The translations under genes and the position numbers were made by a program. This document shows, piece by piece, positions 4,146-53,692 of a DNA stretch of 64,000 nt. The DNA is from a virus, in IMG/VR virus record IMGVR_UViG_3300026549_000035, positions 32,918 through 96,917 of that record; one strand, given 5' to 3'. The notes beneath the pieces were generated by a model. The model was not told the DNA's origin. It made no database searches and was given only the letters and a program-made list of their open reading frames with translations. Position 1 is the stretch's first letter. Each line of letters opens with the position of its first letter.

Positions 4146-4290
4146 CTTATAGCTGCAAATTATGCAGGTTTAAAAAATAGTGCTCCTATTAGTAGATGTT
4201 GTAAAGGTGAAAGAAAAACAGCGGGAAAAGATCCTATAACAGGAGAAAGATTAAAATGGAATTTTTATGAATTAAAGGAGGAAAACAATT

Positions 4291-30772: not shown

Positions 30773-31253
30773 CTCCCCAATTATTAATATTCTAATAAAT
30801 AATATGGGCCCCAATACAAATAGCATCAACTTCATCTTGAGTAGCTTTAATTCCATAATTTTCTGCTACCCATGCCTAAGCCGCACGTTTCTGTTCGGGT
30901 CGTGTTTTACCTTTAATTCCAAGAGTAGATTTCCAAGTTCCTGCTAATACAGCTTCTACTGGAATATTCATATCAATACATAATTCATATAAGACTCCAA
31001 AAACCTCTGCGAGAATTTTAAAAGTCTATACATTATTTACTCGCTATCCATCCATATATATATCTTCTAAAATAACTTTATCTACATTTAATTTATTGAT
31101 TATATCTTGAACTAAACATCGAGCTTGATGTAATCTTTCACCAATATTTGGCTCTTCACTTAGGTCAAATTTTCCATATTCTATTAATTCATTTCCATCA
31201 AAAAGTGCCCAACCAGTTATTCTACTGGACTAATCTAATGCTAAAATTCTCAT
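30768..31253 (-). CDS. RuvC-like Holliday junction resolvase, about 161 aa
   Basis: MRILALDQSSRITGWALFDGNELIEYGK… is the RuvC/YqgF-family N-terminal catalytic motif. Several TAG sense codons are present. The start ATG overlaps the upstream homing-endonuclease gene's stop (ATGA). Confidence 0.7.
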
Positions 31254-32092
31254 TTTACTAACTCCTTTACTTGTTCTTCTGTTAGTTTATTTTTTGTACT
31301 AATTAGTTCAGGACATTCTTTCCAATGTAAAGGTTCTTTAGTAATAGGATGTTTTCCTGCACTTTTATTTTTTCCTCTAATACATGCTCGAATATTGCTT
31401 GAAGAAAAACCGTATTTTTTTTCTACTTCTGATGTTGAATTAAAAAATTCATTTAATTCAATGCAATATAAAGGTATCTTTATACCTTTTAAAATTTCAG
31501 TCCTGTTTTTTAAATTATTAATTTTTTCTTGATTTACCTAATCTAAATATAACCAATGTATAGGCTATCCATTTGGCATAAAACCAGCATATTTTAATTT
31601 ATTTTTACAGACTTTTTGAATTGTACTATTATCAATACCAGTTGCACGCTCTGCGCTTAAAGCACTTTCAAAAGTTAAATCTAGTTCAACACAATAGACA
31701 GGTTTATTAATAATTTTTTTAAAAGTACCATCATTCCACATCTAATAATTTAATTCACGTCGTTTTTCTTTTTGCTCATCAGTTAAAGTATTTGTATTTC
31801 CACCTGCAGTAATATTATAGCCATACTTTGGATGTTGTGTATTATATTTAGCTATTAATTCTTGTTCTTTCTAATTTGCTTCTTCTTTTGTTAAATTAGT
31901 ATATAATACTTCATGGTTAAAATTATCCCATCCATATTTTAAAATAGCTAAACTAAAATGACTATTAGGTTGTTTTCTTATATATTCTAATCCATTTTTT
32001 CCCCAACGAGCCTAAAGAGTTTGTTTCGTCTACCCAATATATTTTTTACCATTAATTTTATTAGTATGACAATAAATTTTATAACTATTCAT
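31250..32092 (-). CDS. GIY-YIG homing endonuclease with NUMOD-like repeats (free-standing), about 280 aa
   Basis: MNSYKIYCHTNKINGKKYIG[TAG]TKQTL[TAG]ARWGKNG…KYGYNITAGG, where TAGs sit at the conserved Gln positions of the YIGQT and LQxRW motifs. The C-terminal region carries two repeated DNA-binding modules. Confidence 0.8.
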
Positions 32093-32172: not shown

Positions 32173-32382
32173 TTATTTGGAAGTACTGCCAAAACCTCCC
32201 GTGCGTTTGGCGTTTGTCCATTCAAAAGTGGCATCTTCTTCAACTGTTTTATAATTCAAGAAAACACCCTAGCCTATTTTATCACCTTTTTGCAAAATTA
32301 TATCTTGAGGAAATAAATTAATTATTTGAAAATAAATATGTCCTTCATTGTCGGGATTATTATAATAATCAGAATCAATAAT
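32173..32382 (-). CDS. dut: dUTPase exon 2 (motifs 3-5)
   Basis: IIDSDYYNNPDNEGHIYFQIINLFPQDIILQKGDKIG[TAG]GVFL…RTGGFGSTSK then TAA. The TAG falls at the invariant Gln of dUTPase motif 4. The stop lies in the loop of a 13-bp perfect palindrome CAGTACTTCCAAA/TTTGGAAGTACTG. Confidence 0.8.
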
Positions 32383-33824
32383 CATTTGTTATCCTATAGG
32401 CTTTTTATCCTACAGTTCTTATATTTTTCCATCATATAAGTTCGGCGTACATTTTCATTTTTAAATAAAAAATGTTGAACACTCTTGGAGGGATTATATT
32501 TATTCACCCCCTACGCTCTACGGTGTCTCTTCGCCTTTCGCAATCGAAGAGATTACCTCGGTATTGTCCTTTTTTTTTGGAGGATTTCACCGATTTTGCT
32601 CAATTTTTAGTCGGCATTATTTGTCACTATAAAATTACTTGTTTCTAATAATAAATCTTCTATTTTTAAATCCTTTAATTGCGTATAGGGGATACGAATT
32701 AAGGGAATATGATTTTCTTTACACCATTCGTTTTTGATTAAATCATGCCTATGAGTATATTCATAATTAAAAATAGTTTCCTAAAAATGCTGTATTCCAT
32801 CAAATTCAATTAAATATTTATTATTTATATAAAAATCAAAAGGTAATAATGTTTTATCTTTGCAGGTTTTAAATTTTTTTTCAATTTCAAAAGGAATATT
32901 ATTAGAAAATAATAATTGTTTAATTTTTTCATTTCCTTTTGAAATATTACTATGTTGTCCACAGCTAAGAGTTAATCCTTGTCGTAGACTAATTCCTAAA
33001 ACGTCTCTTTCAATGCCGCAGTTACATTTACAGCGCCAATAGATAGCTCCTCCGGCACTTCTTTTATTTGTTTTATATAAAACGTGCCACATTCCAAAAG
33101 TCTGTCCAGAGATATCTTTTTCGTTGGTTTTAGAAGATATTATTTCTTTTCCTGATAAATGATTATCATACCAAATTTTAGTAATCATTCCTCTAGAAAC
33201 ATTAAGTTCTCTAGCTAATTGATTAGATGTTTTTGTATTATAAGAATCTATAATATACTATTTATCTTCTTTAGATAGTTTATATTCTTTATTTTCATAA
33301 ACATCATAATTATATTTTTTAGCATAATTTAAAATCGCTGTTGAACTACAATTGTATTTTTTGCCCATTGCCTATGCATTTTTTAATATTTTATAATCTT
33401 TAATAAAATCCTCTAATTTTATATTATCTAATTTGTTATTATGGTTTTTAAGAATATAACCATGTGATTTTAAATAATTTGCAACGGCTGTTGGGCTACA
33501 ATTATATTTTTCACCTACTTTTTGACAACTTAATAATTCTTCATAATCTTTAATTACCTGTTCAATTGGAATATTTATAATTTTTATTTTTTTATTTTTA
33601 CTATTATCATAGTTAATTTTTTTAGCATGATTAAGAATTGAAGTTTTACTACAATTATACAATTCTGCCATTTTTCTAGAACTTTTTAATTTTTGATAAT
33701 TTTTAATAAATTCTTCATTAGTGCCAAAATCCATATATTCACATCCTTTCACTTATATATGAAAGAAGTTAATATTTTATTAGAAGATTTTTGACCAAAC
33801 TTTTTATAGTTAGGAAAAAAGTCT
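32383..33824 (-). mobile_element. self-splicing intron (group I-like, type 'A/B') in dut carrying a homing endonuclease gene
   Basis: It separates dut exon 1 (…SVRSSCPLKNWLILANGVG) from exon 2 (IIDSDY…), which together restore dUTPase motif 3. The 5' exon ends in T and the intron ends …GGATAACAAATG. The 3' end holds a roughly 190-nt conserved structured core (32383-32575), paralogous to the core at 35689-35885. Confidence 0.7.
32607..33752 (-). CDS. intron-encoded homing endonuclease: triple-HTH + zinc finger + Vsr-like PD-(D/E)xK nuclease domain, about 380 aa
   Basis: Track ORFs 33372..33752 and 32781..33188 plus read-through of TAGs give three NCS(K/P/S)T(S/A)(I/V)xN(H/Y)(A/L)KK HTH repeats. 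A CKCNCG zinc finger follows. The C-terminus …LIEFDGIQHF[Q]…D…K…C…IPLIRIPY is typical of DUF559/Vsr-fold homing endonucleases. Confidence 0.65.
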
Positions 33825-34175
33825 ACCGACTCCATTTGCGAGAATGAGCCAATTTTTTAAAGGACAAGAACTTCGAACAGATAATTGCAAATATTGATTT
33901 TTTGGAATATAAGCTTTAACTCCAGTAGGAACTAGAGTCGGCTTAAAATTATATTTTTTAGTTATTTCTTTTACTTCATCTAAGTCAAATAAATATCTAT
34001 CTCTAATTAAACCATATTTAGATAAATTCTAGACATTTTTAAAATAACTTGGAACAATTGTATCTTCGGCAACAACAAAATCATATCCTGCGCTATCTGC
34101 AGTTGCTCTTTTGGGTAATAAAGAACTATCAGGATATTTTGATATTAATTCAAATTTAGGATATGCTAAACTCAT
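33825..34175 (-). CDS. dut: dUTPase exon 1 (motifs 1-2)
   Basis: MSLAYPKFELISKYPDSSLLPKRATADSAGYDFVV…PTGVKAYIPKNQYLQLSVRSSCPLKNWLILANGVG. The start ATG overlaps the upstream gene's TAA (TAATG). Confidence 0.8.
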
Positions 34176-34691: not shown

Positions 34692-35058
34692 AAGTTACAA
34701 CTCCTTCGTCATATGGGAATAACATGAAAGCATGAGCTTCTTGACCAGTCGTTTCATTTTTTGCCCAAATTTCACAATGCTCAGAATCTTCTTCAATTTC
34801 ATCGGAATGGATTGTCCAACCCGTTTCTAATAAAATAGAAATAACAGCATTTCCAAAAGTATCAAATTCTGCCCTAGTAGGTTTTCTATGTTGAAAAACA
34901 GTATAATAATTAATTTCTCTACATAAAAGCATATAAAAGTGTCCTTCAAAATATTTCTTTTCCCATTCGTTGATACGAGCTTTTAAGTCTTCTATTTGAG
35001 ATTCATCATATGCAGGTAACTAACTAATTATACTTTGATTTATTTCATACAAAGACAT
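34684..35058 (-). CDS. hypothetical protein, about 124 aa
   Basis: Track ORF 34684..34932 extends upstream through one TAG to ATG at about 35058 (MSLYEINQSIIS…). Confidence 0.4.
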
Positions 35059-35089
35059 ATTGATATTTCCTTGTCCTTTTACTTTATTT

Positions 35090-35602
35090 TTAATGTTCTT
35101 TTTTTTCATTTTCTCTTATTTCCTTCATATTTAAAATTCTTTGATTGCGGCTTCCGCGCATAGCGAGGGTAATATCTCTTTCAGATAGTAAAAAAGGTCC
35201 TTCAATTAAATAATCTATGTTGTCAAAAACCATATCTATTTTAGGTTCTATCTTCTCAATTAATTCCTATAATTGCTCATAGGTATAGCCTGTCCAAACA
35301 TAAATTTTTATATTAGGATAAACCTTTCTTACTTCTGTGATAATCATCGCTGTTAAAAAAACATTTTCTCCACAAAGAGGTTCTCCACCCATAATACTTA
35401 AATTTCTTTGAACCCCATTGGCATGTAAAGCTTCGATAATTTCCTATAAAACTTCTGGAGTGAATTCTTTTCCGCCATTAAAATCCCAAGTCTAAGGATT
35501 CTGACAACCAGGGCAATGAATAGGACAGCCCTAGGTGAAGAAGCTAACATTAACTCCTTCACCTGCAGCAATATCATTTTTTATAATACCGGCATATCTC
35601 AT
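35090..35602 (-). CDS. nrdG: anaerobic ribonucleotide reductase activating protein (radical SAM), about 170 aa
   Basis: MRYAGIIKNDIAAGEGVNVSFFT[Q]GCPIHCPGCQNP… carries the CxxxCxxC radical-SAM motif of NrdG with 4 TAG codons. The start ATG overlaps the TGA of nrdD exon 4 (ATGA). Confidence 0.8.
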
Positions 35603-35688
35603 TCCATTACCCCCACGTGTTTAGCTCTATTATGGACTTCGTCTTGTTTTCCGAGATTAAATGCTTCGGTGTAATTACCAGTTAAATA
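35599..35688 (-). CDS. nrdD: NrdD exon 4 (C-terminal about 29 aa after the glycyl-radical Gly)
   Basis: YLTGNYTEAFNLGKQDEVHNRAKHVGVME then TGA. It joins exon 3's …EQLRRVTG to give the RVTGYL glycyl-radical motif. Confidence 0.7.
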   Translation of the reverse strand, partial: YLTGNYTEAFNLGKQDEVHNRAKHVGVME

Positions 35689-36925
35689 CAATTTTGTTAT
35701 CCTACAGGCTTTTTATCCTATAGTTCTTATAGTTTCCTATAAGTTCGGCGTACATTTTCATCTACGACTTTACGTTTAGATGTTGGACACTCTTGGAAGG
35801 ATTATATTTATTCACCTTCTACGCTCTACGGTACTTCTTTGCCTTTCGCAATCAAAGAAGTTACCTCGGTATTAGCATAAATTAAATTATATTTTCTTTT
35901 AAGATAATGATTATTATGATTTTTATATAAATAATTTCGTAATAAAACTATATCTTTTTGACTAGACCATCTAATTCTTTTTATAGAACCTTCTTTAGTA
36001 ATATTATTTTTATTTAAAGAAGGTAAAGCTTTAAAAAGATTTTTCTAAACCCAAGATATAATATTTTCATTTCCACAAAAACTTATTTCACAACATTTTT
36101 GACCAGAAGATCGAATATATGTTGTAAAACCTCCATCTCCATCAAAAAGACCTCTTAAAAAAGATGAATTGTATTTAGAATTAAAAATTGGAACTTGCAC
36201 AGAAAAAGTTTTCTTTTGAGTAATTCCCATTTTTTCTAAATCTAAAATTATTTTTTTACACCCTAAGCTAAATCGTTTATAATTTTTATTACTTGTATAT
36301 ACTTTATTAACAACTCCTAAATCTTGTTCTAATAAGTGTAAGATATCTTCATCTTCTTGTTTTAACGTTAATTCTAACTAAAACTTGCTTTTTTCTGGCT
36401 AATTAGTAATTGAACCATCACTAATAATCCATCCGAGCCAATAAGCTTTTTCTGGAGAGTCAATATTTTCAAAATAATTTTCATTTAAATCAGGGTTTTT
36501 TCTTTTTGAAGAAGAAATATTTTCACAATCTTTCACAATTTTTTTTATTCTTTCATAACTAATACTATATTCTTTCTACAATTTTATTAAAGGCTCATAA
36601 TTCATATAACGTTTTTTAATTTCTTCTTCCTATTCTTTTGTTAAAACATTTTTAATTTTAGCACCTATTCTTCTAGGGAGATTATTTATTCTCGCGATTC
36701 GACTAATTGTTGATGTGCTAATATTAAACTATTTTGCTATATCTTGAGTTGATATTTCTGGATGATTTAAATATAAATCAATAATTTTTTTGTCTCTATC
36801 CGTCATAATATAAAAAACTCCTTTACTGGTTTTTCTATTAAGACTTGAAAATTTAATCAGTAGCTTTCACCGATTTTGCCCAATAATATTTTAAAAAATT
36901 TCTTTTTTAAACGGCTATTTAATTA
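35689..36925 (-). mobile_element. self-splicing intron (type 'A/B') in nrdD at the glycyl-radical motif, carrying a LAGLIDADG homing endonuclease gene
   Basis: The 5' exon ends …ACAGGT and the intron ends …GGATAACAAAATTG. The roughly 190-nt 3' core (35689-35885) is about 85% identical to 32383-32575, with compensatory base changes in two stems. Confidence 0.7.
35808..36806 (-). CDS. LAGLIDADG homing endonuclease with N-terminal HTH, about 332 aa
   Basis: …AYWLGWIISDGSIT… and …LRGLFDGDGGF… are the two LAGLIDADG motifs, with an N-terminal sigma-70 region-4-like HTH. Roughly 7 TAG codons are present, and the C-terminal about 25 codons overlap the conserved intron core. Confidence 0.75.
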
Positions 36926-37453
36926 ACCTGTTACTCTACGAAGTTGTTCTATATGAGTTCCACCGCAGCGAGGACAAGTATCATTAATTTCACCTTCCCA
37001 ATCGCAATCTAAACATTTATCAGAAGGAACATTTATTGCAAAATAAGGAATATCTTTGTCCATAGCATAGTTAACTATTTGTTCTAAGGCTTTTGTATTA
37101 TGAACGGCAGACGCATCTAATTCTACATAAGTGATACAACCTGCAGAAGAGTATGGAGTTAATTGACTTTCAATGTCAATCTTATCAAATGGGCTAATAG
37201 AATACCAAACTGGAACATGGATACTATTAGTAAAGAACTCTTTATCAGAAACATTTTTAATAATTCCATATTTTTCTCTAAATTTTTTCAATGCTGTATA
37301 ACATAGATTTTCTGCTGGGGTATAATAAACTCCGAAGTTAAGAGAATATTGCTCTTTGAATTCAGCGCAACGCTTTTTAAATAACTCTTCAATTCTTTTA
37401 GCAACTTCCATACCTTTTTTTGTGGTATGATCGCAACCAACTAAGATCTAAAG
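36926..37453 (-). CDS. nrdD: NrdD exon 3
   Basis: …(ILV)GCDHTTKKGMEVAKRIEEL…CLDCDWEGEINDTCPRCGGTHIEQLRRVTG. This is the C-terminal Zn-ribbon of class III ribonucleotide reductase. The 5' boundary is approximate. Confidence 0.65.
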
Positions 37454-38686
37454 AGTCTCTGCGAGACCTAACTGCATTTTTTATACCCTTCTTTTCAGAA
37501 TATTTAAAGGGATTAGACTATACCATAAATTGATTTATAAATTTCTTGATTGTCTAATTTATTTTTTCTTATTGGTAGTTTAAATTGATTAGTAATTTCT
37601 TTCCATGTAACTCCTCTAGAAATATCTCCTACAGTATTTTTTCCTATGTTATAAGAATTAGCAATTTCCTATAAAGTATTACTAGTAAATATAAGCTAAT
37701 AACAAATATTTTGGACTTCTAATTCAGATAATTTATTCTAATAAACATTCTTTTTTATATTTTTTCTAATAGGATAATTTAAATCCTTAGGACACCAGCT
37801 GTTTTTTCCCCTGTTTATTTCCCCAACAGTATAATTACTTATACCTAAAGTTAAACCGATATCTACAATAGATAAATTTAAATCATTTTTTAACATATCT
37901 ATAATCTTTTTAACTAAATCATTATTTAATTTAGTATGATTTGGGGTTTTTCTTATTGGATAATCTAAATTAGCTTCATAAAAACTTCGCCCTCTATTAA
38001 TATCACTAATACAAGTGAGACTTACTCCAAAATCATTTGCAATTGTTTGAAATGTTATATTACTATTTTTTAACAAGTCTTTAATTTCCATTTCAGCAGA
38101 ACCGCATATTAATTGTTTAGAGGTGCTTCGTTTTCCTCCTTTAGTCATATTATATCCTTTTCCAGAAGTATAATATGCATCAGTTATTTTTATTTGATAA
38201 ATTTCTCTTTCATCTAATTTTTCTAATGGAATAAAATCTTCTACAACCTCTATTGAAAAATTATCAATTCCATATTTTTTTAAAGCTCGATGAAAATACA
38301 ATTCATCATTTTTGGTATCCTATAAATGTTTATTAATTCTATCTTGTAATCTACAGGTAGTCTAACCAATATAAATTTTTCCATTAATTTTATTAGTAAA
38401 TTTATAAATTAAACCAGTTCTCATAAAAATAATTGCTCCTTTTTTACTTTTTCATATTATTATGAAAACTGGGACAATCGCATTTTTCAATTTTGTCCAT
38501 TATAGTCGTTGAACGTTCCTCTGTTCTAGAGGCTTCGCTGCGTCTGGTTGCCCAATCCTTAACGATTTTACCATATCTTGGTCGCTAACCTTGCCACTTA
38601 TATATTCCTATATAAGCTTGGTTGTTAAGGCTCTAAGGGTGTTCCCGCAATTTAGGACATTTATAGTGGGCCAGTGTTAGGCTTTA
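37454..38686 (-). mobile_element. group I intron (distinct subtype) in nrdD carrying a GIY-YIG homing endonuclease gene
   Basis: Exon 2 ends …ALKHGTLAVG (…CAGTGGGT), complementary to an internal guide-like GGCCCACTA. A roughly 260-nt 5' core with hairpins (GTGGGTTAAAGCCTAACACTGGCCCAC…) precedes the ORF. After the ORF comes a roughly 60-nt 3' tail …GTCTCGCAGAGACTCTTTAG. Confidence 0.6.
37513..38424 (-). CDS. GIY-YIG homing endonuclease, about 303 aa
   Basis: MRTGLIYKFTNKINGKIYIG[TAG]TTCRLQDRINKHL[TAG]DTKNDELYFHRALKKYGIDNF…GYNMTKGG, followed by two repeated HTH modules (…IANDFGVSLTCISDINRG…, …LTLGISNYTVGEINRGK…). Confidence 0.8.
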
Positions 38687-39023
38687 ACCCACTGCCAAAG
38701 TTCCATGTTTAAGAGCAGAACGTATACCCTCTTCTGGAATGTAACCTGCCATAGTATGATTTTCATACATAAATTTAGCAGAATTTGGATTTTGAGAACA
38801 AATCCATTCAAAACGTTCAAGTAAAGAATCTTTTGCATCAAAAATAGCTTGATCCAAAATCTTTAAAAATACTTCTACAATATCATCATCATATTCACTG
38901 TCAAAAACTTCTTTTGCTTCCATTGCTAAAGTAGGAAGGATAATTGTAACAGGACAAATATTTCCTCTACCATCTTTTAACTGACCAAAACCATTAATAT
39001 CCCAACCATTTGCAGTTCTACAC
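38687..39023 (-). CDS. nrdD: NrdD exon 2
   Basis: CRTANGWDINGFGQLKDGRGNICPVTIILPTLAMEAKE…ALKHGTLAVG. Joined to exon 1 it restores the conserved MGCR motif (…STMG|CRT…). Confidence 0.65.
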
Positions 39024-39830
39024 ATGTTTACCTAATGTTGCCATTAGCACTGACTATATCTTCTATCTTTTTATTAAGATAGCCTTCCGCTTCGAATATG
39101 TGCCTATCTCATATTCTACTCCCTTACATTCATCAGGGATAGTCGATACAGGTTTTTAATCTTTATCATATTTCCAAATATATCCATAAGCTGTTTTTTG
39201 TTTATTATTTAAACAATAATTAATTCCAACATTTTTAGATTCATTTCCTAAAAATCTAGCTGCTTCTCTTGCTGTTTGGAATCTTTTTAATAATTGTCCA
39301 TTTTTATTATACATTAAAACATCAGCAACATATTTAGAATTTTTATTACCTTTTCCTTTTTCTGAAATAATTTCTTTAATATAATCAGAATGTTTATGAT
39401 ATTCAATACCGCCTAGATCAGCATTATATCCATTTGGTAGTAAAGAATTATACTTTTGAATATATTCACGTTCTATTTTTGATATTTCATTATCTTTTAT
39501 ATTTGTTAAAAGTATTTCAAAAGAAAAATTTTCAATTCCATTTGCCTATATTGCTTTTCCTATAAATGATTTAGAACTTGGTTTTTTATGTTCTGCGAAT
39601 CGTTCATATGGATTTCTATTTGTAATACCTATATAATTTTTATTATTTAATAAATTTGTAATTTTATATAAACTATACATTTTATCACCTTCTCTTTTTA
39701 AGATGATAAAGATTAAACTTCCCACGGTCTCATCCGCATGGGACCTAACCGTTAGCGCAGTCACATTATTTGCGGCCGCACACCCTCAGGCGAGGTTCAA
39801 AAGGTTTTAGATGAGCTATAGTTTCCACTT
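39024..39830 (-). mobile_element. group I intron (IA2-like 'GCTAACGG' family) in nrdD carrying a GIY-YIG homing endonuclease gene
   Basis: The 5' exon ends …ATGGGT. The intron carries …GCGCTAACGGTTAGGTCCCATGCGGATGAGACCGTGGGAAG… (compare T4 td …AACGGGGAACC…AATCCCGTG…). After the ORF come CCTGTATCGACTATCCC…ATAGTCAGTGC then a hairpin, ending G. Confidence 0.65.
39157..39680 (-). CDS. GIY-YIG homing endonuclease, about 174 aa
   Basis: MYSLYKITNLLNNKNYIGITNRNPYERFAEHKK…NGYNADLGG…KTAYGYIWKYDKD. The start is anchored by track ORF 39546..39764. The 3' end coordinate is approximate. Confidence 0.75.
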
Positions 39831-41096
39831 ACCCATCGTTGAGAAATAAGTTCTTGGGTCATTTCGATCATATCCAGCATTACCAGACCAATCAACATTA
39901 GCATAATTTGGATATAATCTCTTAGCAGTAGATTGTAAAGCTAATTGATATAAATCGTAATTGGGGTCTCCCGGTTTACGATTAACTCCCTTCATACATT
40001 GGAAAATTCCACAAGGGAAAATTGAAGTTCTATAATGTTTTCCTAATCCTTCAATAGACACATCTAATAAAGCTTTAATTACCATTCGACCTTCTGAACT
40101 AGTGCAAGTTCCATAATTAATAGAAGTAAATGGAAGTTGATTTCCACTTCTGGACTGTAGAGTATTTAAATTATGATACATACCTTCTGCAGCTTGGTGG
40201 GCTTCTCTTTTAGTCATTTTAATCGCAAAATTATATACTCGCTCATTATATGCTTTCCATTCTGGATCATCAATGCTATAATCTTTCGCATTTTTTGCCA
40301 TATTGACAATTTCATAATCGGCTTGAGACCAATTTTTATCTTCAAGGAATTCCCAACCATCTATATAGTGCTTTACAAAACTTTTACGCACATATGGAAC
40401 CATTGTCCAATCTAAATGAGTTGCAGAAACTCCACCAAACTATTGTAAGCTTTGTAACTAGAAAATAACCGCAACCAATTGGAAAGCAGTTTCTAATGCT
40501 CCAGCAGTTCGAACATCCGTTTGACGAGTGTTAAATCCTTCTGCTAACAAATCATCAAAAGGAATACTTAAACAGTTATGAGATCCAACATAATAACTAC
40601 CTAAATCATGGATATAGTTTCTATTATTAATATGATTGTAACAAGCTTTATCAGATATAATAAAATCTAAAGCTAATTTTTTAGCTACAACATCCATTGC
40701 TTCGCCAGTTCTTCCTCCAAAAGAGTTCTCATCTACATTAGCATTTTGCTTTTGAATGTTTTTTGCATCTAGCTTTTCTCTAATAGCATCAATAAAATCA
40801 TGTTGATAATTACGAGCTACCTCTTTTTTATAACGATATCGAATATATGCACGAGCCACATCAAGACGCTCAGAGCGCATTAAATATTCTTCTACTAAAT
40901 CTTGAATTTTTTCAATTGTGCAGAGGTCATTATCTTGAGATTTAAAATAATCTTCAATTTCATCTGCAATATCTTTAGCAGTATCTTCTTCATAGAGTTT
41001 TCCATCTACTTCAAGAAAAGCAGCATTAATGGCATCTATAATTTTTTGTTTATCAAATGTAACAAGAGTTTTATCTCTTTTTTCTACATTAATCAT
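39831..41096 (-). CDS. nrdD: NrdD exon 1 (ATP-cone + N-terminal catalytic region), about 422 aa
   Basis: RBS AAGGAGTG then MINVEKRDKTLVTFDKQKIIDAINAAF… is an ATP-cone. …NRNYIHDLGSYYVGSHNCLSIPFDDLL…LQSRSGNQLPFTSINYGT…YFSTMG follows. Track ORFs 40458..41096 and 39816..40403 are in frame and joined via TAGs. Confidence 0.75.
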
Positions 41097-41174
41097 AAAA
41101 ATTCACTCCTTATACAAAATATTGTGTTTTACTAAAAAACTCTATCAATATATATGGTGTTTTGGATTGAATTT

Positions 41175-41408
41175 TTAACTATTGTTGTCCTAATCCGCAA
41201 TGAGATAGTTAATATACCAAATTGCTTTTTTTAAATCTTCTACACCATTTTTATATTTCCATCGCCACAAATACTTAATTGCATTTGCTGTACAGAAAGA
41301 TTCTATTCCCTCAAGACCTATTGTTGCAGCCTTGAGGGCTTCTATACATTCAATTCCACCCTCGTTGTAATGACGAGGATGATTTACATTATCATTTTGA
41401 ATTATCAT
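41175..41408 (-). CDS. DUF3310-family phage protein, about 77 aa
   Basis: …HPRHYNEGGIECIEALKAATIGLEGIESFCTANAIKYLWRWKYKNG… matches the HPxHY…IEcI signature. Confidence 0.55.
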
Positions 41409-41436
41409 TGTATATTTACTCCTCTGTTGAAATTAT

Positions 41437-41847
41437 TAATTCATATGGAGATATATAAAACATTTCTGGTTTATAGTCTGCATATAAAACAGTTCTTTTC
41501 TAATAATAAATTTTTATATCAAGATTGTTATTTAAACAATACCAATGATATTTTACATTTTTAAATTCTGGTAAAAAACGATATTCTTGTCCAGGCTTAA
41601 TAATTATATTTTTTAATATCATTTTTTCTAAAGGAATTTCTATATAAGCACCATAATCACCAATAACAACACGAGAATATCCTTTAGCTAAAAAATGACC
41701 ATATTTATCATATATTTTACAATTAAGATTTCCGTTCAAAGAGAAACAAGACGGAAGTTCTTTTTCGTATTGTCTTCTTTGTTTTATAGATAATTCTTTC
41801 GGTAAAGGTTTATAATGATATTGATCTACTAATTGTTGAATTGTCAT
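41437..41847 (-). CDS. hypothetical protein, about 136 aa
   Basis: Track ORF 41500..41847 extends through TAG. The start overlaps the dnaE stop (TAATG). Confidence 0.4.
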
Positions 41848-43250
41848 TATTCTCCATTCTCTCCTTTATATCTTTCACTCTAAAGAATTAAACTACCATC
41901 ATCATTAACTTCTAAAATATGATATAATTGATGCCCAACAGAAGAAGCATATTTTTTAGTTACAAAAGTATCTCCAAGTCTAATTCCTTGCACCATAATC
42001 ATATTACCTCTATTAAAAAAACTTTTTTCTATTACATGTTTAACTCCGTCTAATCCTTTTTCTGAAATTTGTTTATCAAATAATGCAAAATATTCTTTTC
42101 TGAATTTTACATTAACAACTCCGTTAGTCGTTAAAATTGTTACTGTACCTTTTGTCTTATTTTTAGCAATACAAGTTCCACAAATACGACAAAGTTTAAA
42201 GATATGAATAGGCTTATTCTTTTTATAAAAGGTTTTCTCTATTTCAGGTTCTTCAGGTAAATTATAAAAATTTTTTAAACCATATCTTTCAAAATCAACC
42301 TTTGCTAATTCATGTTCATGTTTATAGAAGCAAAGAACTTCCATTTCCCAAGCAGATAAATTCGCCTTTCCCGCATATTTATCCCAATCTGCTTTAAATA
42401 TTCGAGTATTTAATTCAGATAAAATTTCTTGTCCATCTTGCGCAAGCCATTCTCTAAAAACATCCATATAAGATTGATATATTTTATCCCATTTTTTCAT
42501 ATTTAACGTATTATCTGAGTTAATTAAATTAGCGACTTCTATTTCTACTAAAAAATCAATTGCTCGATTATCAACATGATAACATACTGAATCATTCTTT
42601 ACTTTACATATAGCTTTTAAATATCTATTAAATTCATAAACTCTAAAAGCTAATTTTCTTTCTTCTGTATCTAATGGAACTAAGTCTTGTTTTAATAAAG
42701 TTGGAAAATTTTGTAATGTTAATCTAGCTTTTTTATCACAAGTTTCCCATATATACCAAGCCATAGCTTTTTTTCTATCCATCATTTCATCAAAAGCTCC
42801 CGCTTTAATTAATGATATCATAGGTTGTTTTTTTGGTTTTACTTTTTGATAGAAATCTTTTATTGAACTATATGGACGATTTTTAATAATCTGATTCACA
42901 AAATCATCGTTTACATTTAATAAAGCTTTCATTCCAAAAAGAATTCGATTGTTTTCTACATCAGGTTTAAATCCAAAATCAGAAGTATTAATATTTACTA
43001 GACTAACATTAATACCTGCATTAATAATTTCATTCAAAGCTTTTGCAACTTTACCATAATCAGTACTTGCTGCTTTTTTTTGAGTTTCATTTTCTTCTGA
43101 TTCTAATACATTTTCATCATCGTCATCTTCTTCTAATGAACCACTGTTTACAACTAAGCAAGCCGTATCCCAATATATAGGATTCCAATGAGTTCCTAAA
43201 TATAAAGTTTGCGCTCCAACAAAACTATATGCTAAAGCGTGTATGCATAA
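41847..43250 (-). CDS. dnaE: DNA polymerase III alpha (DnaE-type) exon 3
   Basis: …CIHALAYSFVGAQTLYLGTHWNPIYWDTACL… aligns with DnaE HSAAYALVSYQTAWLKAHYP…, and the C-terminal region runs to TAA at about 41847. The 5' boundary is approximate. Confidence 0.65.
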
Positions 43251-44462
43251 TTAATTTATTACTGACTATTTTTTACAGGTGTTGTAGTGAAGTTGGCAAA
43301 ACTTCTTACCTGCACACTGTTTCCCAATGCGTATCAATAGCATCAGTACTCTCTGTCTAACCAGAGATAGTCGATACAACATTTCTTATTTAAAAGGTTT
43401 ATTATATTATTTATTTCTTAAAGGATATTGATATTCTTTTTGTTTATGCGAACGTCCAGAATTAATATTTTTTACAGTAGAATAAGATTTTCCCCATTTA
43501 TCAGCAATTTTTTTTAATGATATATCAGAAGTTAAAATATCTTTAATAATTCCTTTTACCCAAATTTCATTATCTTGTTTTCTACAGCCTTTATTACAAA
43601 GAGGATATTTTTCTTCTTTATCATAAAAATATTTTCCTGTATTTATCATAGATAAAAATCCAGCGCTTTTTATATTAAAATCTTTTTGAATAGAACTATA
43701 TTTTTCTCCAGATTTTATTCTTTTTTTAATTTCTTTAATTTCTTTTTGAGAAAATTTACTTTTAGCATTTTTCTTTAAAGGATAATCAAAGTCAGGATTA
43801 AAAAAATTAGTTCCTGTATTGATATTTACTAAAAAAGTTCTTTTTAACTTTGGAGAATACAAATTCTCAATATCATCATATTCTTCATCATTTAACAATC
43901 TTTTTTGAATATCTTTAATCTCATTCTCTGTAAATAATTTTGAGCGTTTTAATTTTTCTTCATAGCTTAAAGGAGGCTTTGGACATCCCTCTCCACCAAT
44001 AGTTACATTATATCCATTTTCATCTTTTAAAGAATGATAATAAGCAATAAAAAATTTTTCTCTTTCATTTATAAAATCTTGACTTTCTTCGTCTGCAATC
44101 TCTTCTAAAACTTCATAATCAAAATTTTCTATGCCATATTTTCTAATTGCGCAATGAAAAGGAAGCCAATAGCCAAAAGCTTTTTCATTAAATGATTCAC
44201 TTTTATGTCCATTATATCTTTTTTGTAAATTATTCGTTTGTCCAATATAACAATGTCCATTTATTTTATTTGTAAATTTATAAATATAAGTCATCTTTTT
44301 TCACTCCTCTCATGGATATTTGAAAAATATAATATCTCTTTTAAATAGATTTGTCACGAGATTTTACCCTCGTTAGCAATTATTTTATTTATTTGCCAAA
44401 TAAATTATCAAAATAATTACCCCCGTGATGAGCGGGTTAAGTGTGTAAGCGCCATTACAACG
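43251..44462 (-). mobile_element. group I intron (IA2-like family) in dnaE carrying a GIY-YIG homing endonuclease gene
   Basis: It splits the conserved DnaE motif GY(S/G)F|N-K-S-H-S-A-A-Y. The 5' part carries …GCTAACGAGGGTAAAATCTCGTGACAAATC…. The 3' part carries …TTGTATCGACTATCTC…AAAAATAGTCAGTAATAAATTAATTATG. Confidence 0.6.
43407..44294 (-). CDS. GIY-YIG homing endonuclease, 295 aa, TAG-free
   Basis: ORF track: MTYIYKFTNKINGHCYIGQTNNLQKRYNGHK…GYNVTIGGEG…, with repeated C-terminal modules. Confidence 0.85.
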   Translation of the reverse strand: MTYIYKFTNKINGHCYIGQTNNLQKRYNGHKSESFNEKAFGYWLPFHCAIRKYGIENFDYEVLEEIADEESQDFINEREKFFIAYYHSLKDENGYNVTIGGEGCPKPPLSYEEKLKRSKLFTENEIKDIQKRLLNDEEYDDIENLYSPKLKRTFLVNINTGTNFFNPDFDYPLKKNAKSKFSQKEIKEIKKRIKSGEKYSSIQKDFNIKSAGFLSMINTGKYFYDKEEKYPLCNKGCRKQDNEIWVKGIIKDILTSDISLKKIADKWGKSYSTVKNINSGRSHKQKEYQYPLRNK

Positions 44463-45665
44463 CTAAATGAATAACCCATCTGAGGTCCAGCTCCGTAACG
44501 CCAAACATATTGACCTAATTTTTCACTTTTAGCTTGCCGCAAAACCTTATCTCTTAATTCAGGAATTTTATCCATCAATTTTTTACCAACCACTTTACGA
44601 GCTTTGTTAGCATCTCCTAAACTAAAATTACAAATATTAGGATCCATTAACATTTTCATAAGCTGCTCTTGGCTTGGTGGAACTCCATATGACTATTTAA
44701 AATATGGTTCTAATATTTTTTGTTCAGTTTTAGTTAAACCAAAATCATCCATTTCTTTATACCATAAAGAAATATCATTTTTATAACGATAATATTTATC
44801 TATAGGACGTTCTTCGCCTTCTTCACCCATCAATCTCATTAATCCATTTGCATCAGCCATTTCAAGAATAGATTGAGGTTTAAGAAGTTTAGCGGTTTTT
44901 ACACCCTCTGTGCCTTCAAATTGGAAGGTATTAATAACAGACATCTTTCCTAATGCTTCCCATATTTTTTTATCAGTTTCTATTGGAAGAACATTTGGAT
45001 GAAGATATTTATTATAAATTTCTCGAAGAGATAAATCTTTTTCAATTTCACCGTCTTCTTGAAGAAATTGAATTGTTTGAACAATTTTATCTTGTGCTTC
45101 AGTTACAAGAAAATCATATTTTGTTAATCCCATATATTCGGCATCATGTAAATCATATTGAGTAATAATTTTGCCTTTTGGAGTTTTCATAAAAGCACTA
45201 TGTTCAAATGGATCACCATCAAATAAAACAATTCCAGAAGCATGAGAACTTCTTTTATTTATTGTTCCTTCAATAGCTAAAATAATATCTAATAATCCGG
45301 GGTAATTATTTACTTCATAAATAAAAGTTTTTACAGGTTTTCTATGTTTTTCTTCATTACCATGTACAACATCTTTAATACTCCATAAAAATCCTCGTTC
45401 TTGTGGAATTAAAGAAGCCATATACTGGGCTTGGTCAACATCGATACCATCTGGATACTCTTCACTACGATAACCTCTACATGCGGTTAAAACAGCAGAC
45501 TTAGAACCTTCTGTCCCAAAAGTAGAAATACGAGCACAACCAAAAATTTCTTTTGCCCATTCTGGAACATCATTATTAAACATTTTACTGCGTTCAGTTG
45601 CAATTTTTTGAAGAATTAAATTACATTTAGATGGACATATATCTATATCAATATCCTTTTATTAT
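44463..45665 (-). CDS. dnaE: DNA polymerase III alpha (DnaE-type) exon 2
   Basis: DIDIDICPSK…ISTFGTEGSKSAVLTACRGY…AIEGTINKRSSHASGIVLFDGDP…GLTKYDFL…LGDANKARKVVGKK…GYSF. These are the DnaE core motifs (PDIDIDF, RHASTHAAGVV, AMGKKK). Boundaries are approximate. Confidence 0.65.
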
Positions 45666-46815
45666 TGGACTATATCTTTTACAATAAACTACTGAGAATA
45701 ATTACTTCATTTATTGTAAGAGTGCGCTACGGAATAGTGCTTATCTCTATTCCTCTATATTAGTCTCTACACTCCAATAAAAACCTTTATATAATGTTTT
45801 ATTTTTAATGGCTTTATCTAAACCTGTATGACCTTTCATATTTAAAAAATCTAATACTGCTGTTTTAGCATTAAAAATTTTTATTAAATTATAATCTTTA
45901 TCATACATATAAACTTTTTTACCATTAATAGCATTATTTTTACTTTTTCCATACATTCCATTTTTTACTCCTGAAGTTTTTCCTTTACTATGTTCAGACA
46001 TTAATTTTTTAGATTCTTCAGTATGATGTTTTCCATACATTCCATTTTTTGCTCCTTTAGTAGCCTCTGACATAGTTTTACGATATTCTTCAGTTTTCAT
46101 ATAAGATGTATCTCTATTTTTACGAATTTTTTCTTTAGTCTCTTCTGTCAAATGAATACCATATCTAGGATTATTTTTTCCTTTATATTTATTACTCATT
46201 TTTTGTGAATATTTTTCTTTTTCTTCTTTACTCCATCCAGCTCTTGTATTACCACCATTTCCGCCTTCGTGAATATTATAAAAATTTTCATCTTGAACTG
46301 CGTTAAAAGCAGAAATAAATTCTCTTTCTTTATTAAAATTTTCTTCTTCATTAGATGAAATAAAAAGAATTTCTTTTTTAAAATATTCTATGCCTATTTT
46401 TTTTATATCTTCTTTTAACTTAGTTCCACTACCTAAGTATTTATCATCTAATTCTCCGTAGTGTTTTCCGATGTATTTTTTACCAGTTAAAAGATTTGTT
46501 GTTAAATAAATATAATGTTGTTTCATATTATCACCCTTTCATTATTATATGATTAAAGTGATATTGACTTTGACAGACATTGACCAAGATTTTTATATAG
46601 TTTTTATTAAAGCACGGTATTACGTGTCTAGCCTTTTCAGGACCACTCGCTCTCTTAGTCAGCTGATTCGCATATTATAAAATATATATAATATCTTATT
46701 TTGCTGATACCGTTAGCTTGTGCTTTACCAATTTTTGACAGGAATTTTTGGTAAGCCACAAACACCTCTTAGCAGAGTTCACACTCTTTTTTTACAACTC
46801 GGCAATATCAATATT
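45666..46815 (-). mobile_element. group I intron (diverged member of the IA2-like family) in dnaE at the PDIDIDF motif, carrying a GIY-YIG homing endonuclease gene
   Basis: Exon 1 …ERIELGSL and exon 2 DIDIDIC… rebuild the conserved DnaE motif. The 5' part carries …GCTAACGGTATCAGC…ATACCGTGCTTTAAT…. The 3' part carries …ATATAGTCCAATAATAAAAGG. The repeated GAATTTTTGGTAA motif also occurs at 46725-46760. Confidence 0.55.
45747..46526 (-). CDS. GIY-YIG homing endonuclease with NUMOD3-like repeats, 259 aa, TAG-free
   Basis: ORF track: MKQHYIYLTTNLLTGKKYIGKHYG…NIHEGGNGG… plus repeated NxxYGxHxTEEtK modules. Confidence 0.85.
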   Translation of the reverse strand: MKQHYIYLTTNLLTGKKYIGKHYGELDDKYLGSGTKLKEDIKKIGIEYFKKEILFISSNEEENFNKEREFISAFNAVQDENFYNIHEGGNGGNTRAGWSKEEKEKYSQKMSNKYKGKNNPRYGIHLTEETKEKIRKNRDTSYMKTEEYRKTMSEATKGAKNGMYGKHHTEESKKLMSEHSKGKTSGVKNGMYGKSKNNAINGKKVYMYDKDYNLIKIFNAKTAVLDFLNMKGHTGLDKAIKNKTLYKGFYWSVETNIEE

Positions 46816-48206
46816 AGACTACCGAGTTCGATTCTCTCATCATTTAAATATCTAAAGAAAGGAAGCTCCCATTCTATTGGATCTAATTGAGTTATTCCCA
46901 TAAGATAATGGTTTAACGCAGCGCAAGAAGAACCTCTACCTGCGCCAACCATAGATCCTGAATCCCATATTAAATCAATATAATGTTGTAAAGTATTAGG
47001 ATAACGAAACATATTTGTTTCTAATTTTTCACTAATAATACTTTTTACTCTTGCTTCTTCTTCTAATTCATCTATATACTTAGATTCACCAGTTTCATTA
47101 TAATTATTCCAACCATGACCAATTTCATCTAATTTTTCCCAACACTGATTTACCCAATATCTATCTTGAATATCATCTGATGTAAATAATTTTTTTAATG
47201 TCGGATAGTTAGTCATATCATCGGCATAATCATTATTAACACTCCACCATGCTGATTTAGGATAATCTTTAACTTCTACAGAAGGAATGTCTTGTTTATG
47301 AAATAATGAATAAGGCTTTATTTTATTTTGTATATCTAATGTATTTTTTAATATCCACTGACAATCTTCAATAGGATAACTATTTTTTAATAAATCAAAT
47401 ACTTCTGAATAATTCATTAAATAAGTAAATTCATAAAAGGCATCTACTTCTCGGTCGCCTTCTTTTGAATTTAAATATGCTTTATGGACTTGTCTTTCTT
47501 GTTTTGTTAAATAATGTGCGTCTGTGCCTACCACCAATTTAATATCATATGCTTTCGATATTTTTAATAAAGCTTGATTAACTGAAATTTGATCAGATGA
47601 AGTGCCCGGCGCACACTCAAGATAAAAATCATCTTTAAATAAATCTTTACAAAATAAAAGGAAATTATGAATTTTTTGATAATAAATCATAGCATTATTA
47701 TCATCATTAATTTTTCTAGCCATTAAATATAATAATATATTCTAAGGAAGTTCTCCTCCTATACATGCAGATGTTGCAATTAAATGACCAGAAAATTTAT
47801 TTACAATCTCTTTTAATTCTGTTTTTAAAGTAGGAACACGTTCAATTTTACGATCTACATAAGAATTTATCCATGCCCTTGAGCTTAATTCTCTAAGTGC
47901 TCTATGACCAATGGCATCTTTCGCAACTAAAATAAAGTGATAATATTTTTGACCTCTATCTCGAGATTCTGTTAAATAAATCTCATTCCCAAGCGCAAGT
48001 TTAAAATTAGGATGTTCTTTCTAAATAGACTTCATATGTTTTTCCGCTCTTACATGAGCAGATAAACATTCGTGATCTGTTATAGCAATACCAGATAAAC
48101 CTAACTCTATTGCTTTATCAATTAAACCTTCGGGCTGATTAATACTATCTATTAAGCGAATATTACTATAAATTGTATGATTATGACAACCAAAATAAGA
48201 CTGCAT
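46816..48206 (-). CDS. dnaE: DNA polymerase III alpha (DnaE-type) exon 1 (PHP domain + fingers), about 465 aa
   Basis: MQSYFGCHNHTIYSNIRLIDS…GLSGIAITDHECLSAH… is a PHP domain. Track ORFs 48021..48206 and 46779..47723 are in frame and bridged by TAG-containing sequence (…GAGRGSSCAALNHYLMGITQLDPIEWELPFFRYLNDERIELGSL). Confidence 0.7.
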
Positions 48207-50862: not shown

Positions 50863-52004
50863 TTAAAAATAATAATTAAATTCATTTGTAATTTCATATT
50901 CCTCAATAATAATCTAAGGACTAAAATTTCCATTCCATTCATTTAAATTACAAGTTCCAACAACATTAATTGTTTTATGTCCTGTTTCAGAATATAACCT
51001 ATTAAACTCATCTTGACTTGAATTAAATTTAATTAATGTTAAATTGCCAGGTAAAATAATTTTTAGTGTCGGTCTTTTATCTGGTGACATTAATATTAAA
51101 TTATCTTTATGAACTGAAATATTTTCTATAGCGACTTGAGGTTCTGGTAAGCCTTGTCCCCAATAACTTGCAAGTCCTCCTAAATTCATAATATCTTCTT
51201 TATATAATCCTACTTCTCCTGCAGACCAAATAAAATCTACTCTATAACAATTAGTAAAATCAAAATCTTTTAATTCTCTATCTATATATTCTTTAAAGGC
51301 TTCTAAATTTTTATCTAAAATACTAATACCAAAGGCACTTGCATGCCCCTAAGCATATTCTACTAAATTACTATTGGCTAAAAATTCTCTCATATTTTCT
51401 AATTTAGAATAAGTAGCATTACGACCAGACCCTCGCCAAGAATAAGACAATACTTCGCCAGTATTTTCATCAACTTCTATATGACGATTAAGAATCAAAA
51501 CTGGTCGCATATATTTACCCATAATCTAATTTGCAATTAAACCAGTTAAATTTTCTGAAACAGGTTCTTCTAATTGCACAATAATTATAGGATGTTCTAA
51601 CAAATTATTCTATTGAATTAATTCCTCAATAACTGTTAAATTATAATCTCTAACTCTTGTCTATCTATTTTTAATATTTTTACAATTTCTGCAAGCCTAA
51701 TCGATTCTAGGTTCTAGCTAACCTTTTGCTCCCCTTTTATTAGAGGGTATTAATTCATATGCTTTAAAATCTAACATAGACTCAAATAAAAGCATTTTTT
51801 CATCTAAACTGCCGACTCTAATAGTTGCATTAATATATGGCGCTATATAGAATGAAATTCCAAATGGTGTTACTTCTCCTCTAAGAGAATAAGCCTACTC
51901 TTCGACAAAAGCAGAAATAAAGGGGTTCTTTATATTATTTTTACTTGTTCCAAGAGTGATCAATTCTCTAGTTTCTAAATTTCTTAAATCCATCATATCT
52001 GCTA
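50863..52004 (-). CDS. recJ: RecJ-like 5'-3' ssDNA exonuclease exon 2
   Basis: …VADMMDLRNLETRELITLGTSKNN…FGISFYIAPYINATIRVGSLDEK… matches the RecJ …TVADVVPL…LGFALGPRLNAAGRL region. It continues through the track ORF 50914..51189 to TAA at about 50863. The 5' boundary is approximate. Confidence 0.65.
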
Positions 52005-53070: not shown

Positions 53071-53686
53071 ACTGCGACTAAATCTAATAAATGATTTGCA
53101 CAACGCTTTTCTGGTGGTAGCAGTGAATCAATATACTAGCAAAATTTATAAACAATACCAACACCAGATAAACTTTTGTTAGGGTAATCACTTAATTGAT
53201 TATTAATAATACAAGCATTTTCTGAAACTTTTTCTGCTTCGTGATGATCTAATACCAATACATCAATACCCTTTTCTCTTAGCTATTTATGTTGTTCATA
53301 ATCATTGCTACTTGAGTCTGGGGCAATTACTAATTTAACATCTTCTGGAATAGTTTCTACAATAAGACCATGCTCTTTACCATCGTGAATACGATAAGAA
53401 ATATTCTACTGGGCATGACCTGGCGCAAACATATTTATATAGTTAATAAGTGCGGCCGCCGATGTATAGCCATCTACATCGCTATCTACCTATATAAAAA
53501 TTTTATCACCAGCTACTAAATGCTTAATAAGCATTTCTGCGCCTTGTTGCATATTATCAAGATAGGAGGGGTCTAAAATATCTTCTTTACAAGTAAGTAA
53601 ATATCTTTCAATTTCATCGGGTTTAATTCCTCTATTAACGAAAACCCATTCGATAGCTTTAAGATCTGACTAATCTATTGGAATTT
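53071..53686 (-). CDS. recJ: RecJ-like exonuclease exon 1 (DHH domain)
   Basis: MKPEIPID…LVAGDKIFI[Q]VDSDVDGYTSAAALINYI…VLVLDHHEAE…HLLDLVAVG carries the DHH motifs I-III. The start ATG overlaps the upstream gene's TGA. Confidence 0.7.
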
Positions 53687-53692
53687 CAGGTT

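Follow-up and report, generated by a model that had tools for sequence, protein, structure and literature searches.

The nrdD gene for the class III ribonucleotide reductase (RNR) in a 64,000-nucleotide (nt) stretch of viral DNA (IMG/VR record IMGVR_UViG_3300026549_000035, positions 32,918 to 96,917; hereafter the window, in whose numbering positions are given) occupies the minus strand at 41096-35599 and consists of four exons separated by insertions of 808, 1212 and 1237 nt (introns 1, 2 and 3; Table 1). We put at roughly 90% the probability that this is one functional gene transcribed through three mobile group I introns. The insertion points are exact, the open reading frame (ORF) of the ligated exons is intact and under purifying selection, and the insertions have covarying group I folds. 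Joining the exons at 39831^39022, 38687^37474 and 36926^35688 (a caret marks a splice site, here and in motifs) gives a coding sequence (CDS) of 2241 nt for a 746-amino-acid (aa) NrdD. Against the intronless allele of a related metagenomic phage (viral contig IMGVR_UViG_3300032038_006377, hereafter L003), the ligated CDS is colinear, with 92.7% nt identity and zero gaps, and all three insertions are therefore precise. Intron 1 lies directly before the codon for the catalytic Cys (TMG^CR), intron 3 directly after that for the glycyl-radical Gly (RVTG^Y), which is the final codon of exon 3, and intron 2 within the conserved GxLGLAE strand. The cysteine of the MGCR motif, the RVTGY glycyl-radical motif and a C-terminal Zn ribbon are all found in the product, the motifs being restored only on ligation. 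Relative to the intronless allele, dN/dS is 0.09, 0.12, 0.03 and 0.05 for exons 1 to 4; such purifying selection (0.03-0.12) indicates that all four pieces have been kept as coding sequence.

Table 1. Coordinates of nrdD, its introns and endonuclease ORFs, and other features of the window.
Feature	Position	Strand	Description
nrdD exon 1	39831..41096	minus	422 codons; ATP-cone to ..YFSTMG; TAG=Gln at codons 213, 219
Intron 1	39023..39830	minus	808 nt; group I, T4 nrdD/sunY lineage; terminal G at 39023
Intron 1 endonuclease	39156..39680	minus	GIY-YIG + NUMOD-like, 174 aa, 1 TAG; in P6a loop; PF01541 40.6 bits
nrdD exon 2	38687..39022	minus	112 codons, CRTANGW...HGTLAVG; codon 1 is the catalytic Cys of the MGCR motif
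Intron 2	37475..38686	minus	1212 nt, corrected 3' end; group I, P5a/b/c extension; terminal G at 37475
Intron 2 endonuclease	37513..38424	minus	GIY-YIG + repeated helix-turn-helix (HTH) modules, 303 aa, 5 TAGs; PF01541 31.4 bits
nrdD exon 3	36926..37474	minus	183 codons, QLGLAETL-Q(TAG)-ILVG ... Zn-ribbon CxxC..CxxC ... RRVTG
Intron 3	35689..36925	minus	1237 nt; group I, JCL1032-terL/ROSA lineage; terminal G at 35689
Intron 3 endonuclease	35808..36806	minus	N-terminal HTH + double-motif LAGLIDADG, 332 aa, 7 TAGs; PF14528 35.6 bits
nrdD exon 4	35599..35688	minus	29 codons + TGA; YLTGNYTEAFNLGKQDEVHNRAKHVGVME
nrdG	35090..35602	minus	activating radical-SAM enzyme; Fer4_12 100 bits, Radical_SAM 43 bits; 4 TAG codons
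dUTPase, split	32173-34175	minus	..LANGVG^IIDSDYY..; intron about 32386-33809; ligated product matches Pfam dUTPase
DNA polymerase III alpha-like	41847-48206	minus	three pieces: 46779-48206, 44417-45583, 41847-42932
RecJ-like exonuclease, split	50863-53711	minus	DHH 53007-53711; RecJ_OB 50863-51996
3308-aa ORF (example of a long recoded ORF)	4927-14853	plus	96 in-frame TAGs

An earlier, sequence-only reading of this DNA had proposed the same four exons and three introns, and that arrangement holds, as do its first junction (..STMG^CRT.., exact at 39831^39022) and its third (..RRVTG^YLTG.., exact at 36926^35688). Its second junction, G^ILVGCDH at 37448^37447, was 27 nt off and left a 9-residue gap against Prevotella copri NrdD, because an in-frame TAG had been taken as a stop and the recoding of TAG as Gln went unrecognised. 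The correct 3' splice site is 37475^37474 (G^QLGLAETL-TAG-ILVGCDH); exon 3 starts at 37474 (HGTLAVG^QLGLAETLQILVG), and the nine missed residues are encoded just upstream of the start first proposed. In alignments with homologues, the exons thus abut at junctions 1 and 3 as originally drawn and at junction 2 only after this correction. A first build of the ligated product, made with the uncorrected junction 2, matched Prevotella copri NrdD 8p23 end to end (E 6.5e-117) and scored 435 bits on TIGR02487 (cut-off 326). Peptides spanning junction 2 (HGTLAVGQLGLAETLQIL) and junction 3 (RRVTGYLTG) are identical in Thomasclavelia phage TR-TP1, the nearest cultured relative, and the TR-TP1 and L003 peptides are colinear with exon 3. 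The placement of nrdG downstream was likewise correct: its start overlaps the nrdD stop (ATGA at 35602-35599), and it has radical-SAM domain matches.

Also unnoticed in the earlier reading were the two in-frame TAG codons of exon 1 (..AVIF-TAG-LQSLQ-TAG-FGGVS..) and the 1, 5 and 7 TAGs in the endonuclease ORFs of introns 1, 2 and 3. Exon 1 matches L003 gaplessly with its TAGs shared. TR-TP1 has Q, E and Q, respectively, at nrdD codons 213, 219 and 543, each of which is TAG in L003 as well. Read-through of TAG is required by nearly all long ORFs of the window, among them one of 3308 aa and another of 1626 aa with 25 in-frame TAGs. Because reading TAG as Gln makes nrdG, the three intron ORFs and nearly every long window ORF continuous, the phage is TAG-recoded (code 15-like), with TAG most likely read as Gln; we infer the amino acid, since no tRNA gene, and hence no suppressor tRNA, was found within the window. 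At a variable position of nrdD, codon 153 (about 40638-40640), the window has TAC (Tyr) and L003 has TAG, a difference compatible with a recent single-base change but also a caution about which amino acid TAG specifies.

The boundaries of the three insertions are those of group I introns. The last base of each 5' exon is U, and that of each insertion is G (39023, 37475 and 35689). Near the 5' end of each intron, one guide segment forms two duplexes, P1 with the final 6-7 nt of the upstream exon and P10, which adjoins the P1 strand, with the first nt of the downstream exon, and a U.G wobble sits at the P1 cleavage site in every case, the last base of exon 1, for instance, being a U that pairs with a G of the internal guide sequence. 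For introns 1, 2 and 3, respectively, P1 energies are -8.8, -11.6 and -3.2 kcal/mol and P10 energies -3.1, -9.5 and -2.7 kcal/mol. A TAA stop in the exon frame comes directly past the 5' splice site in introns 2 and 3 and eight codons in for intron 1. The 3' ends of the introns form potential start codons in frame with the next exon (AUG at 39023-39025, AUG at 37475-37477 and UUG at 35689-35691, minus strand); as a terminal AUG is common to the introns of JCL1032, ROSA and phiCDKH02, it probably belongs to the 3' end of the ribozyme and is not a signal for translation.

By BLAST against phage genomes, the non-coding parts of the three introns have their homologues in three different sets of phage introns, each of them widespread, and BLAST detected no similarity among the three cores. 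The introns had previously been described as being of three different types and belonging to three RNA families. They do match three different phage intron sets, and their cores are mutually dissimilar, but Rfam treats group I introns as a single family, to which none of the three gave a match, and they are better regarded as three separate group I lineages. With respect to the extra helices of subgroup IA, which lie between P7 and the 3' strand of P3, intron 1 has P7.1 and P7.2, intron 3 has P7.1 only, and this copy of intron 2 has neither; its relatives in PhiPA3, AR9 and Lak have P7.1/P7.2. Intron 2 here also has a P5abc-like extension.

In intron 1 we assigned P1 (GAUGGGU/GCUCAUC), P3 (CCUUUU/GGAAGG), P4 (ACGGUU/GACCGU), P5 (GUCC/GGAU) and P7 (GACUAU/AUAGUC), together with a 15-bp P6a, P7.1, P7.2, P8, and P9 with a GCAA loop. 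In its 3' half, 30 of 30 nt across P7-P7.1 agree with the T4 nrdD (sunY) intron core. When intron 1 was aligned with the introns of T4, SA20RB and Vibrio phage 1.084.O and with two introns of Vibrio phage P1, P3, P7, P7.1, P7.2, P8 and P9 were 96.4% paired, with compensatory changes at 20 of 35 pairs (0/500 shuffles, meaning here and below that none of 500 shuffles attained the observed values); slid controls were 32-42% paired. An alternative P3, CGCU/AGCG, was dropped for CCUUUU/GGAAGG, which covaries across the family. The P6a helix (UUUAAUCUUUAUCAU/AUGAUAAAGAUUAAA) brackets the GIY-YIG ORF, whose last codons form its 3' strand. A local hairpin at 39700-39727 (minus strand; UAUCAUCUU/AGAAGGUGAUA) would sequester the Shine-Dalgarno sequence of the endonuclease gene, and it and the long-range P6a helix compete for the same UAUCAU; such competition could possibly act as a switch between endonuclease translation and ribozyme folding. 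Between P3 and J3/4 lies an insertion of ~45 nt that includes the GCGGCCGC palindrome and is absent from all other members of the intron 1 family examined.

The helices of intron 2 are P1 (AGUGGGU/GCCCACU), P10 (with CAGUUAGG), P3 (UGUCC/GGACA), P4-P6 (at 38650-38500), P7 (5' strand GACUAUA; 3' strand UAUAGUC, 37522-37516), P8 (AAAUUGA/UCAAUUU) and P9 (CCCUU/AAGGG). P8 brackets the endonuclease ORF, which fills its loop and whose last codons overlap the 3' strands of P8 and P7; past the end of the ORF come P9 and then ..AAAAAAUG^ at the 3' splice site. The first 190 nt match introns of CB457P1, VRE9_1, Bastillevirinae, AR9/PBS1, PhiPA3, Lak and the crAss-like phage cr108_1. Across nine sequences of this family, P4, P5, P5a/b/c (with its A-rich bulge) and P6 are 92.4% paired, with compensatory changes at 25 of 41 pairs (0/500 shuffles). 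In a more distant relative (IMGVR_UViG_3300032038_000031, hereafter L098, from the same metagenome as L003), the homologue that occupies this site has compensatory changes in P3, P5b and P6 and an identical 3' splice site.

For intron 3 the helices are P1 (AAC(A)GGU/GCCGUU), P10 (UAUUUAA/UUAAAUA), P3 (UUGGGCA/UGUCCAA), P4 (UCGGU/ACCGA) and P7 (GCGUA/UACGC), with P2, P6, P7.1, P8, P9 and P9.1 in addition. Over the 190 nt at its 3' end, it shares ~78% identity with introns from phages of Staphylococcus, Clostridioides and Bacillus and from cyanobacterial (Leptolyngbya) and crAss-like phages. For the intron in terL of Lactobacillus phage JCL1032, a gene given as a join in GenBank, the figure is ~69%. 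Aligned with an intron in the dUTPase gene of the window and with those of JCL1032, phiCDKH02, ROSA and Lbo-JY46, it is 96.3% paired over P3, P4, P6, P7, P7.1, P8, P9 and P9.1, with compensatory changes at 31 of 51 pairs (0/500 shuffles). The endonuclease ORF lies in the P5 loop, and its last ~70 nt span the 3' strand of P4, P6 and the 5' strand of P7 and run into P7.1.

Several results nevertheless weigh against reading these insertions as functional group I introns. A check against the Rfam group I model, suggested in the sequence-only reading, came back empty: RF00028 (Intron_gpI) gave no match in the window at its gathering score, and none in 35000-41500 even at E<=10, and the ORF-less homologue of intron 3 in JCL1032 also went unmatched. 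Uninterrupted homologues used as controls do score (those of intron 1, T4 105 and Vibrio phage P1 50-74 bits; those of intron 2, cr108_1 80 and PhiPA3 72 bits). Rfam thus misses introns 1 and 2 because ORFs of 0.5-1 kb lie inside P6 and P8, and since the uninterrupted homologues of both pass, we do not count its silence by itself against the introns. The lineage of intron 3 is beyond the reach of the model, consistent with published remarks on its bias (PMC11878797). In intron 1, P4-P6 come from a single-sequence fold and inspection, with P4 and P5 placed by family analogy, and the insertion at 39765-39810 (minus strand), with its two hairpins, is unusual. In intron 2, P3, P7, P8 and P9 rest on inspection and one close homologue (L098), and an automated search for P3 and P8 in the family returned spurious AT-rich pairings, which we did not use. 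P1 of intron 3 is weak (-3.2 kcal/mol) and contains one bulged A. Finally, a co-conversion signal, that is, excess exon divergence beside the junctions, was not significant (p=0.08).

Splicing, endonuclease activity and homing are what we infer, with the T4 nrdD intron as the model for self-splicing. Each intron RNA would fold as a group I ribozyme whose guide pairs with the upstream exon in P1 and the downstream exon in P10; free guanosine would attack the 5' splice site, the freed exon would attack after the terminal G, and the exons would be joined. Three such events would produce the mRNA for the 746-aa reductase. By analogy with I-TevI/II and LAGLIDADG enzymes, each endonuclease would cleave the nrdD of co-infecting relatives where it lacks the intron, which would then be copied into the break during repair.

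Alternatively, the ribozymes might be dead and the gene in pieces, with four NrdD fragments translated separately and assembling non-covalently, as for NrdA of Aeromonas phage Aeh1, which is reportedly split by a free-standing endonuclease. The in-frame starts at the intron ends (..ACATG^TGT, ..AAATG^CAG, ..AATTG^TAT), with a purine-rich stretch 5-9 nt upstream, speak for such an arrangement, and intron-free split RNR genes exist (PMC3653736). We consider it very improbable, however: no part of the ribozyme cores is missing, pairings specific to each family are retained, P1 and P10 fit the actual flanking exons, the terminal AUG is shared across the family, as described above, and the breaks would fall just before the catalytic Cys and just after the radical Gly, leaving a last fragment of 29 residues. 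We also give little credence to a decaying gene, with nrdD a pseudogene in the course of being lost and at least one intron no longer able to splice. The weak P1 of intron 3, the odd insertion in intron 1 and the silence of Rfam would suit it, but every exon has the low dN/dS given above, there is no frameshift and no stop other than TAG, the product retains its catalytic Cys, Gly-radical motif and Zn ribbon, and nrdG is intact downstream. Next to no probability attaches to inteins, which RNR genes often carry at catalytic sites (PMC3653736) and which are ruled out here by TAA stops at most eight codons past the 5' junctions and by separate-frame ORFs with ribosome-binding sites of their own, or to the earlier exon map with exon 3 from 37447, whose junction 2 keeps the reading frame but deletes 9 conserved residues, whereas the corrected junction leaves no gap against either L003 or TR-TP1 and is the one that pairs in P10.

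The intron ORFs fit a gene carrying mobile introns. The families assigned in the sequence-only reading (GIY-YIG, GIY-YIG and LAGLIDADG for introns 1 to 3) were borne out by scores that all exceed the Pfam cut-offs (22.6 bits for PF01541; 22.5 bits for PF14528, LAGLIDADG_3). Each of the three genes lies in a peripheral loop of its intron, in its own frame and with a good Shine-Dalgarno sequence, and the ORFs are intact only under TAG=Gln. All three, like nrdD itself, need this recoding for full translation, a case of homing endonuclease genes that have adapted to, or depend on, TAG=Gln; a weaker idea than the colonisation of new sites considered below is that their TAG codons could gate translation to the phase of infection in which suppression is active. 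Between the intron 1 endonuclease and I-TevII no similarity was detected, and joint inheritance of intron and endonuclease from a T4-like source therefore finds no support; ribozyme lineage and endonuclease are thus decoupled, as reported for other phages (PMC11878797). The intron 2 endonuclease is paralogous to other GIY-YIG ORFs of the window, and four more GIY-YIG ORFs (3699-4298, plus strand; 31250-32092, 57537-58427 and 62890-63726, minus strand) are paralogues of the intron 1 and intron 2 endonucleases. That of intron 3 carries the motifs LGWIISDGS and LRGLFDGDGG and is weakly similar to the LAGLIDADG protein of the Lbo-JY46 intron.

Among viral-contig relatives, nrdD is uninterrupted in all of the best 80 of roughly 450. 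L003 has no insertion, TR-TP1 has one and L098 at least three, at partly different sites, which is the presence/absence pattern that would be expected of mobile introns. The single intron of TR-TP1 carries an HNH gene and lies 4 nt upstream of the intron 1 site. In L098, a homologue of intron 2 is accompanied by insertions after ..SRSGN^ and ..TSIFP^, with none at the sites of introns 1 and 3; one of its insertions, in a region matching exon 1 of the window, has an intron 3-type core. When viral contigs were scanned for the exact junctions, that of intron 2 turned up once, in L098, whereas those of introns 1 and 3 had no second copy.

The hexamer GUGGGU and its guide serve intron 2 at LAVG^Q here and its relatives at RVCG-Y in phages VRE9_1 and CB457P1, in different reading frames; near-identical hexamers are found for intron 1 (AUGGGU; T4, AUGAGU) and intron 3 (AACAGGU; JCL1032 terL, AACGGU). 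Because each ribozyme thus has a relative elsewhere with the same or nearly the same guide and hexamer, one could envisage group I introns colonising new sites, even within one gene, by guide-directed reverse splicing or by selection for a compatible P1, with endonucleases swapped in later, although we think this rather unlikely as it stands. The sharing of guides and hexamers fits P1-constrained colonisation, whether by reverse splicing or by selection after ectopic homing, and proves neither.

Interruptions are not confined to nrdD: the dUTPase, the polymerase III alpha-like gene, the RecJ-like gene and probably a DnaB-like gene of the window are also interrupted, and its replication genes near nrdD carry at least four further introns. 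The dUTPase intron is of the intron 3 lineage (core 82% identical, at 32385-32565), and its ORF, a 375-aa multi-HTH protein at 32607-33734, lies upstream of P3. The polymerase pieces encode, in the order of Table 1, PHP and NTPase-N, NTPase-C and finger, and HHH_6/OB regions, and the gaps between them hold GIY-YIG ORFs (45741-46526 and 43407-44294). The insertion in the RecJ-like gene contains a GIY-YIG ORF (52172-52891) followed by an intron 1/sunY-type core (P7-P7.1 at 52129-52172); a convincing P1 was sought for this insertion and not found. The GIY-YIG ORF at 57537-58427 is upstream of a DnaB_C-like piece (56080-56859).

These findings have practical consequences. Gene calling that uses the standard code and is blind to introns splits this nrdD into about a dozen spurious ORFs, which shows why the annotation of recoded gut phages has to allow for code 15 as well as for introns. 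Two mapped intron sites are added at essential NrdD residues, one before the thiyl-radical Cys and one after the radical Gly, and at the glycyl-radical site the ribozyme lineage is seen to vary from phage to phage, the insertion points lying 1 nt apart. With 0, 1 or at least 3 insertions, the alleles form a clean set in which to study how introns are gained and switch sites and how ribozyme and endonuclease become decoupled.

The closest precedent for intron 1 is the group IA2 intron of T4 nrdD (sunY) with I-TevII, which shares the host gene, the ribozyme lineage, the presence of a GIY-YIG endonuclease, the P7.1/P7.2/P8/P9 layout and a near-identical guide (GCUCAU). The T4 intron differs in its site, ..QAYE^YEVNTL, corresponding to about residue 308 here, as compared with TMG^CR at 422/423; in the position of its endonuclease ORF, downstream of the core in the P9 region and not in P6a; and in being the only one in its gene, which here has three. 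Vibrio phage 1.084.O carries an intron 1-family ribozyme at exactly the same site of nrdD (CCTATGGGT^, PMG^CRS; ATGGGT^), also with an ORF in the P6 loop, but its NrdD is only ~30% identical, its ORF encodes a winged-HTH (wHTH) protein instead of a GIY-YIG endonuclease, and it uses the standard code; its nrdD is annotated as two CDSs plus the wHTH protein. Intron 2 has relatives, with 72-74% identity, in nrdD of Enterococcus phage VRE9_1 and Enterocloster phage CB457P1, which have the same 5' exon hexamer (GUGGGU) and a GCYCAC guide. Theirs, however, sit at the glycyl-radical site (RVCG-T^AT), 1 nt from the intron 3 site, whereas intron 2 is at LAVG^QLG, and the endonucleases and ORF positions differ. 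The relatives of intron 3 in JCL1032 terL, Staphylococcus phage ROSA and Clostridioides phages keep all its helices, with compensatory changes, and JCL1032 has the same guide (GCCGUU); they lie in terminase, tail and DNA polymerase genes and are ORF-less or carry HNH or other ORFs, in P5 or upstream of P3.

The description of nrdD as unusually intron-loaded did not survive comparison with phages at large, or with the further introns of the window itself. Among the RNR genes of phages, nrdD is the one split most often, and nrdE of Brochothrix phage A9 has three introns (PMC3653736). The published description of the Jug phages, 360-402 kb Bacteroides phages of the gut, resembles the present case: group I introns break up nrdD in 95 of 104 genomes, into four fragments in one example, with endonucleases between the fragments and metatranscriptome reads supporting splicing for part of them (PMC12880540). 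Two to three introns occur in Bastillevirinae genes (pol/terL), and three in Twort orf142 (PMC11878797), and the RNA polymerase beta gene of AR9 is annotated as a join of six pieces. In Vibrio phage vB_CoeS_P1 (L095), we observed four tandem Intron_gpI matches within 1.2 kb of the tape-measure gene (423-1609 of that record), which is annotated as two separate CDSs. Genes with 3-5 introns thus exist in Twort, AR9, A9 and the Bastillevirinae, and these phages and Vibrio phage P1 resemble the present one in having several group I introns of differing lineages in one essential gene; they concern other genes or phages, and none has been reported with endonuclease ORFs that depend on TAG=Gln. The three-intron nrdD is real and well supported, and it is a further example of a phenomenon already described in phages; it does not overturn current understanding, and its added interest lies in the TAG=Gln dependence of its three endonuclease ORFs and in the combinations of site and lineage at its catalytic motifs.

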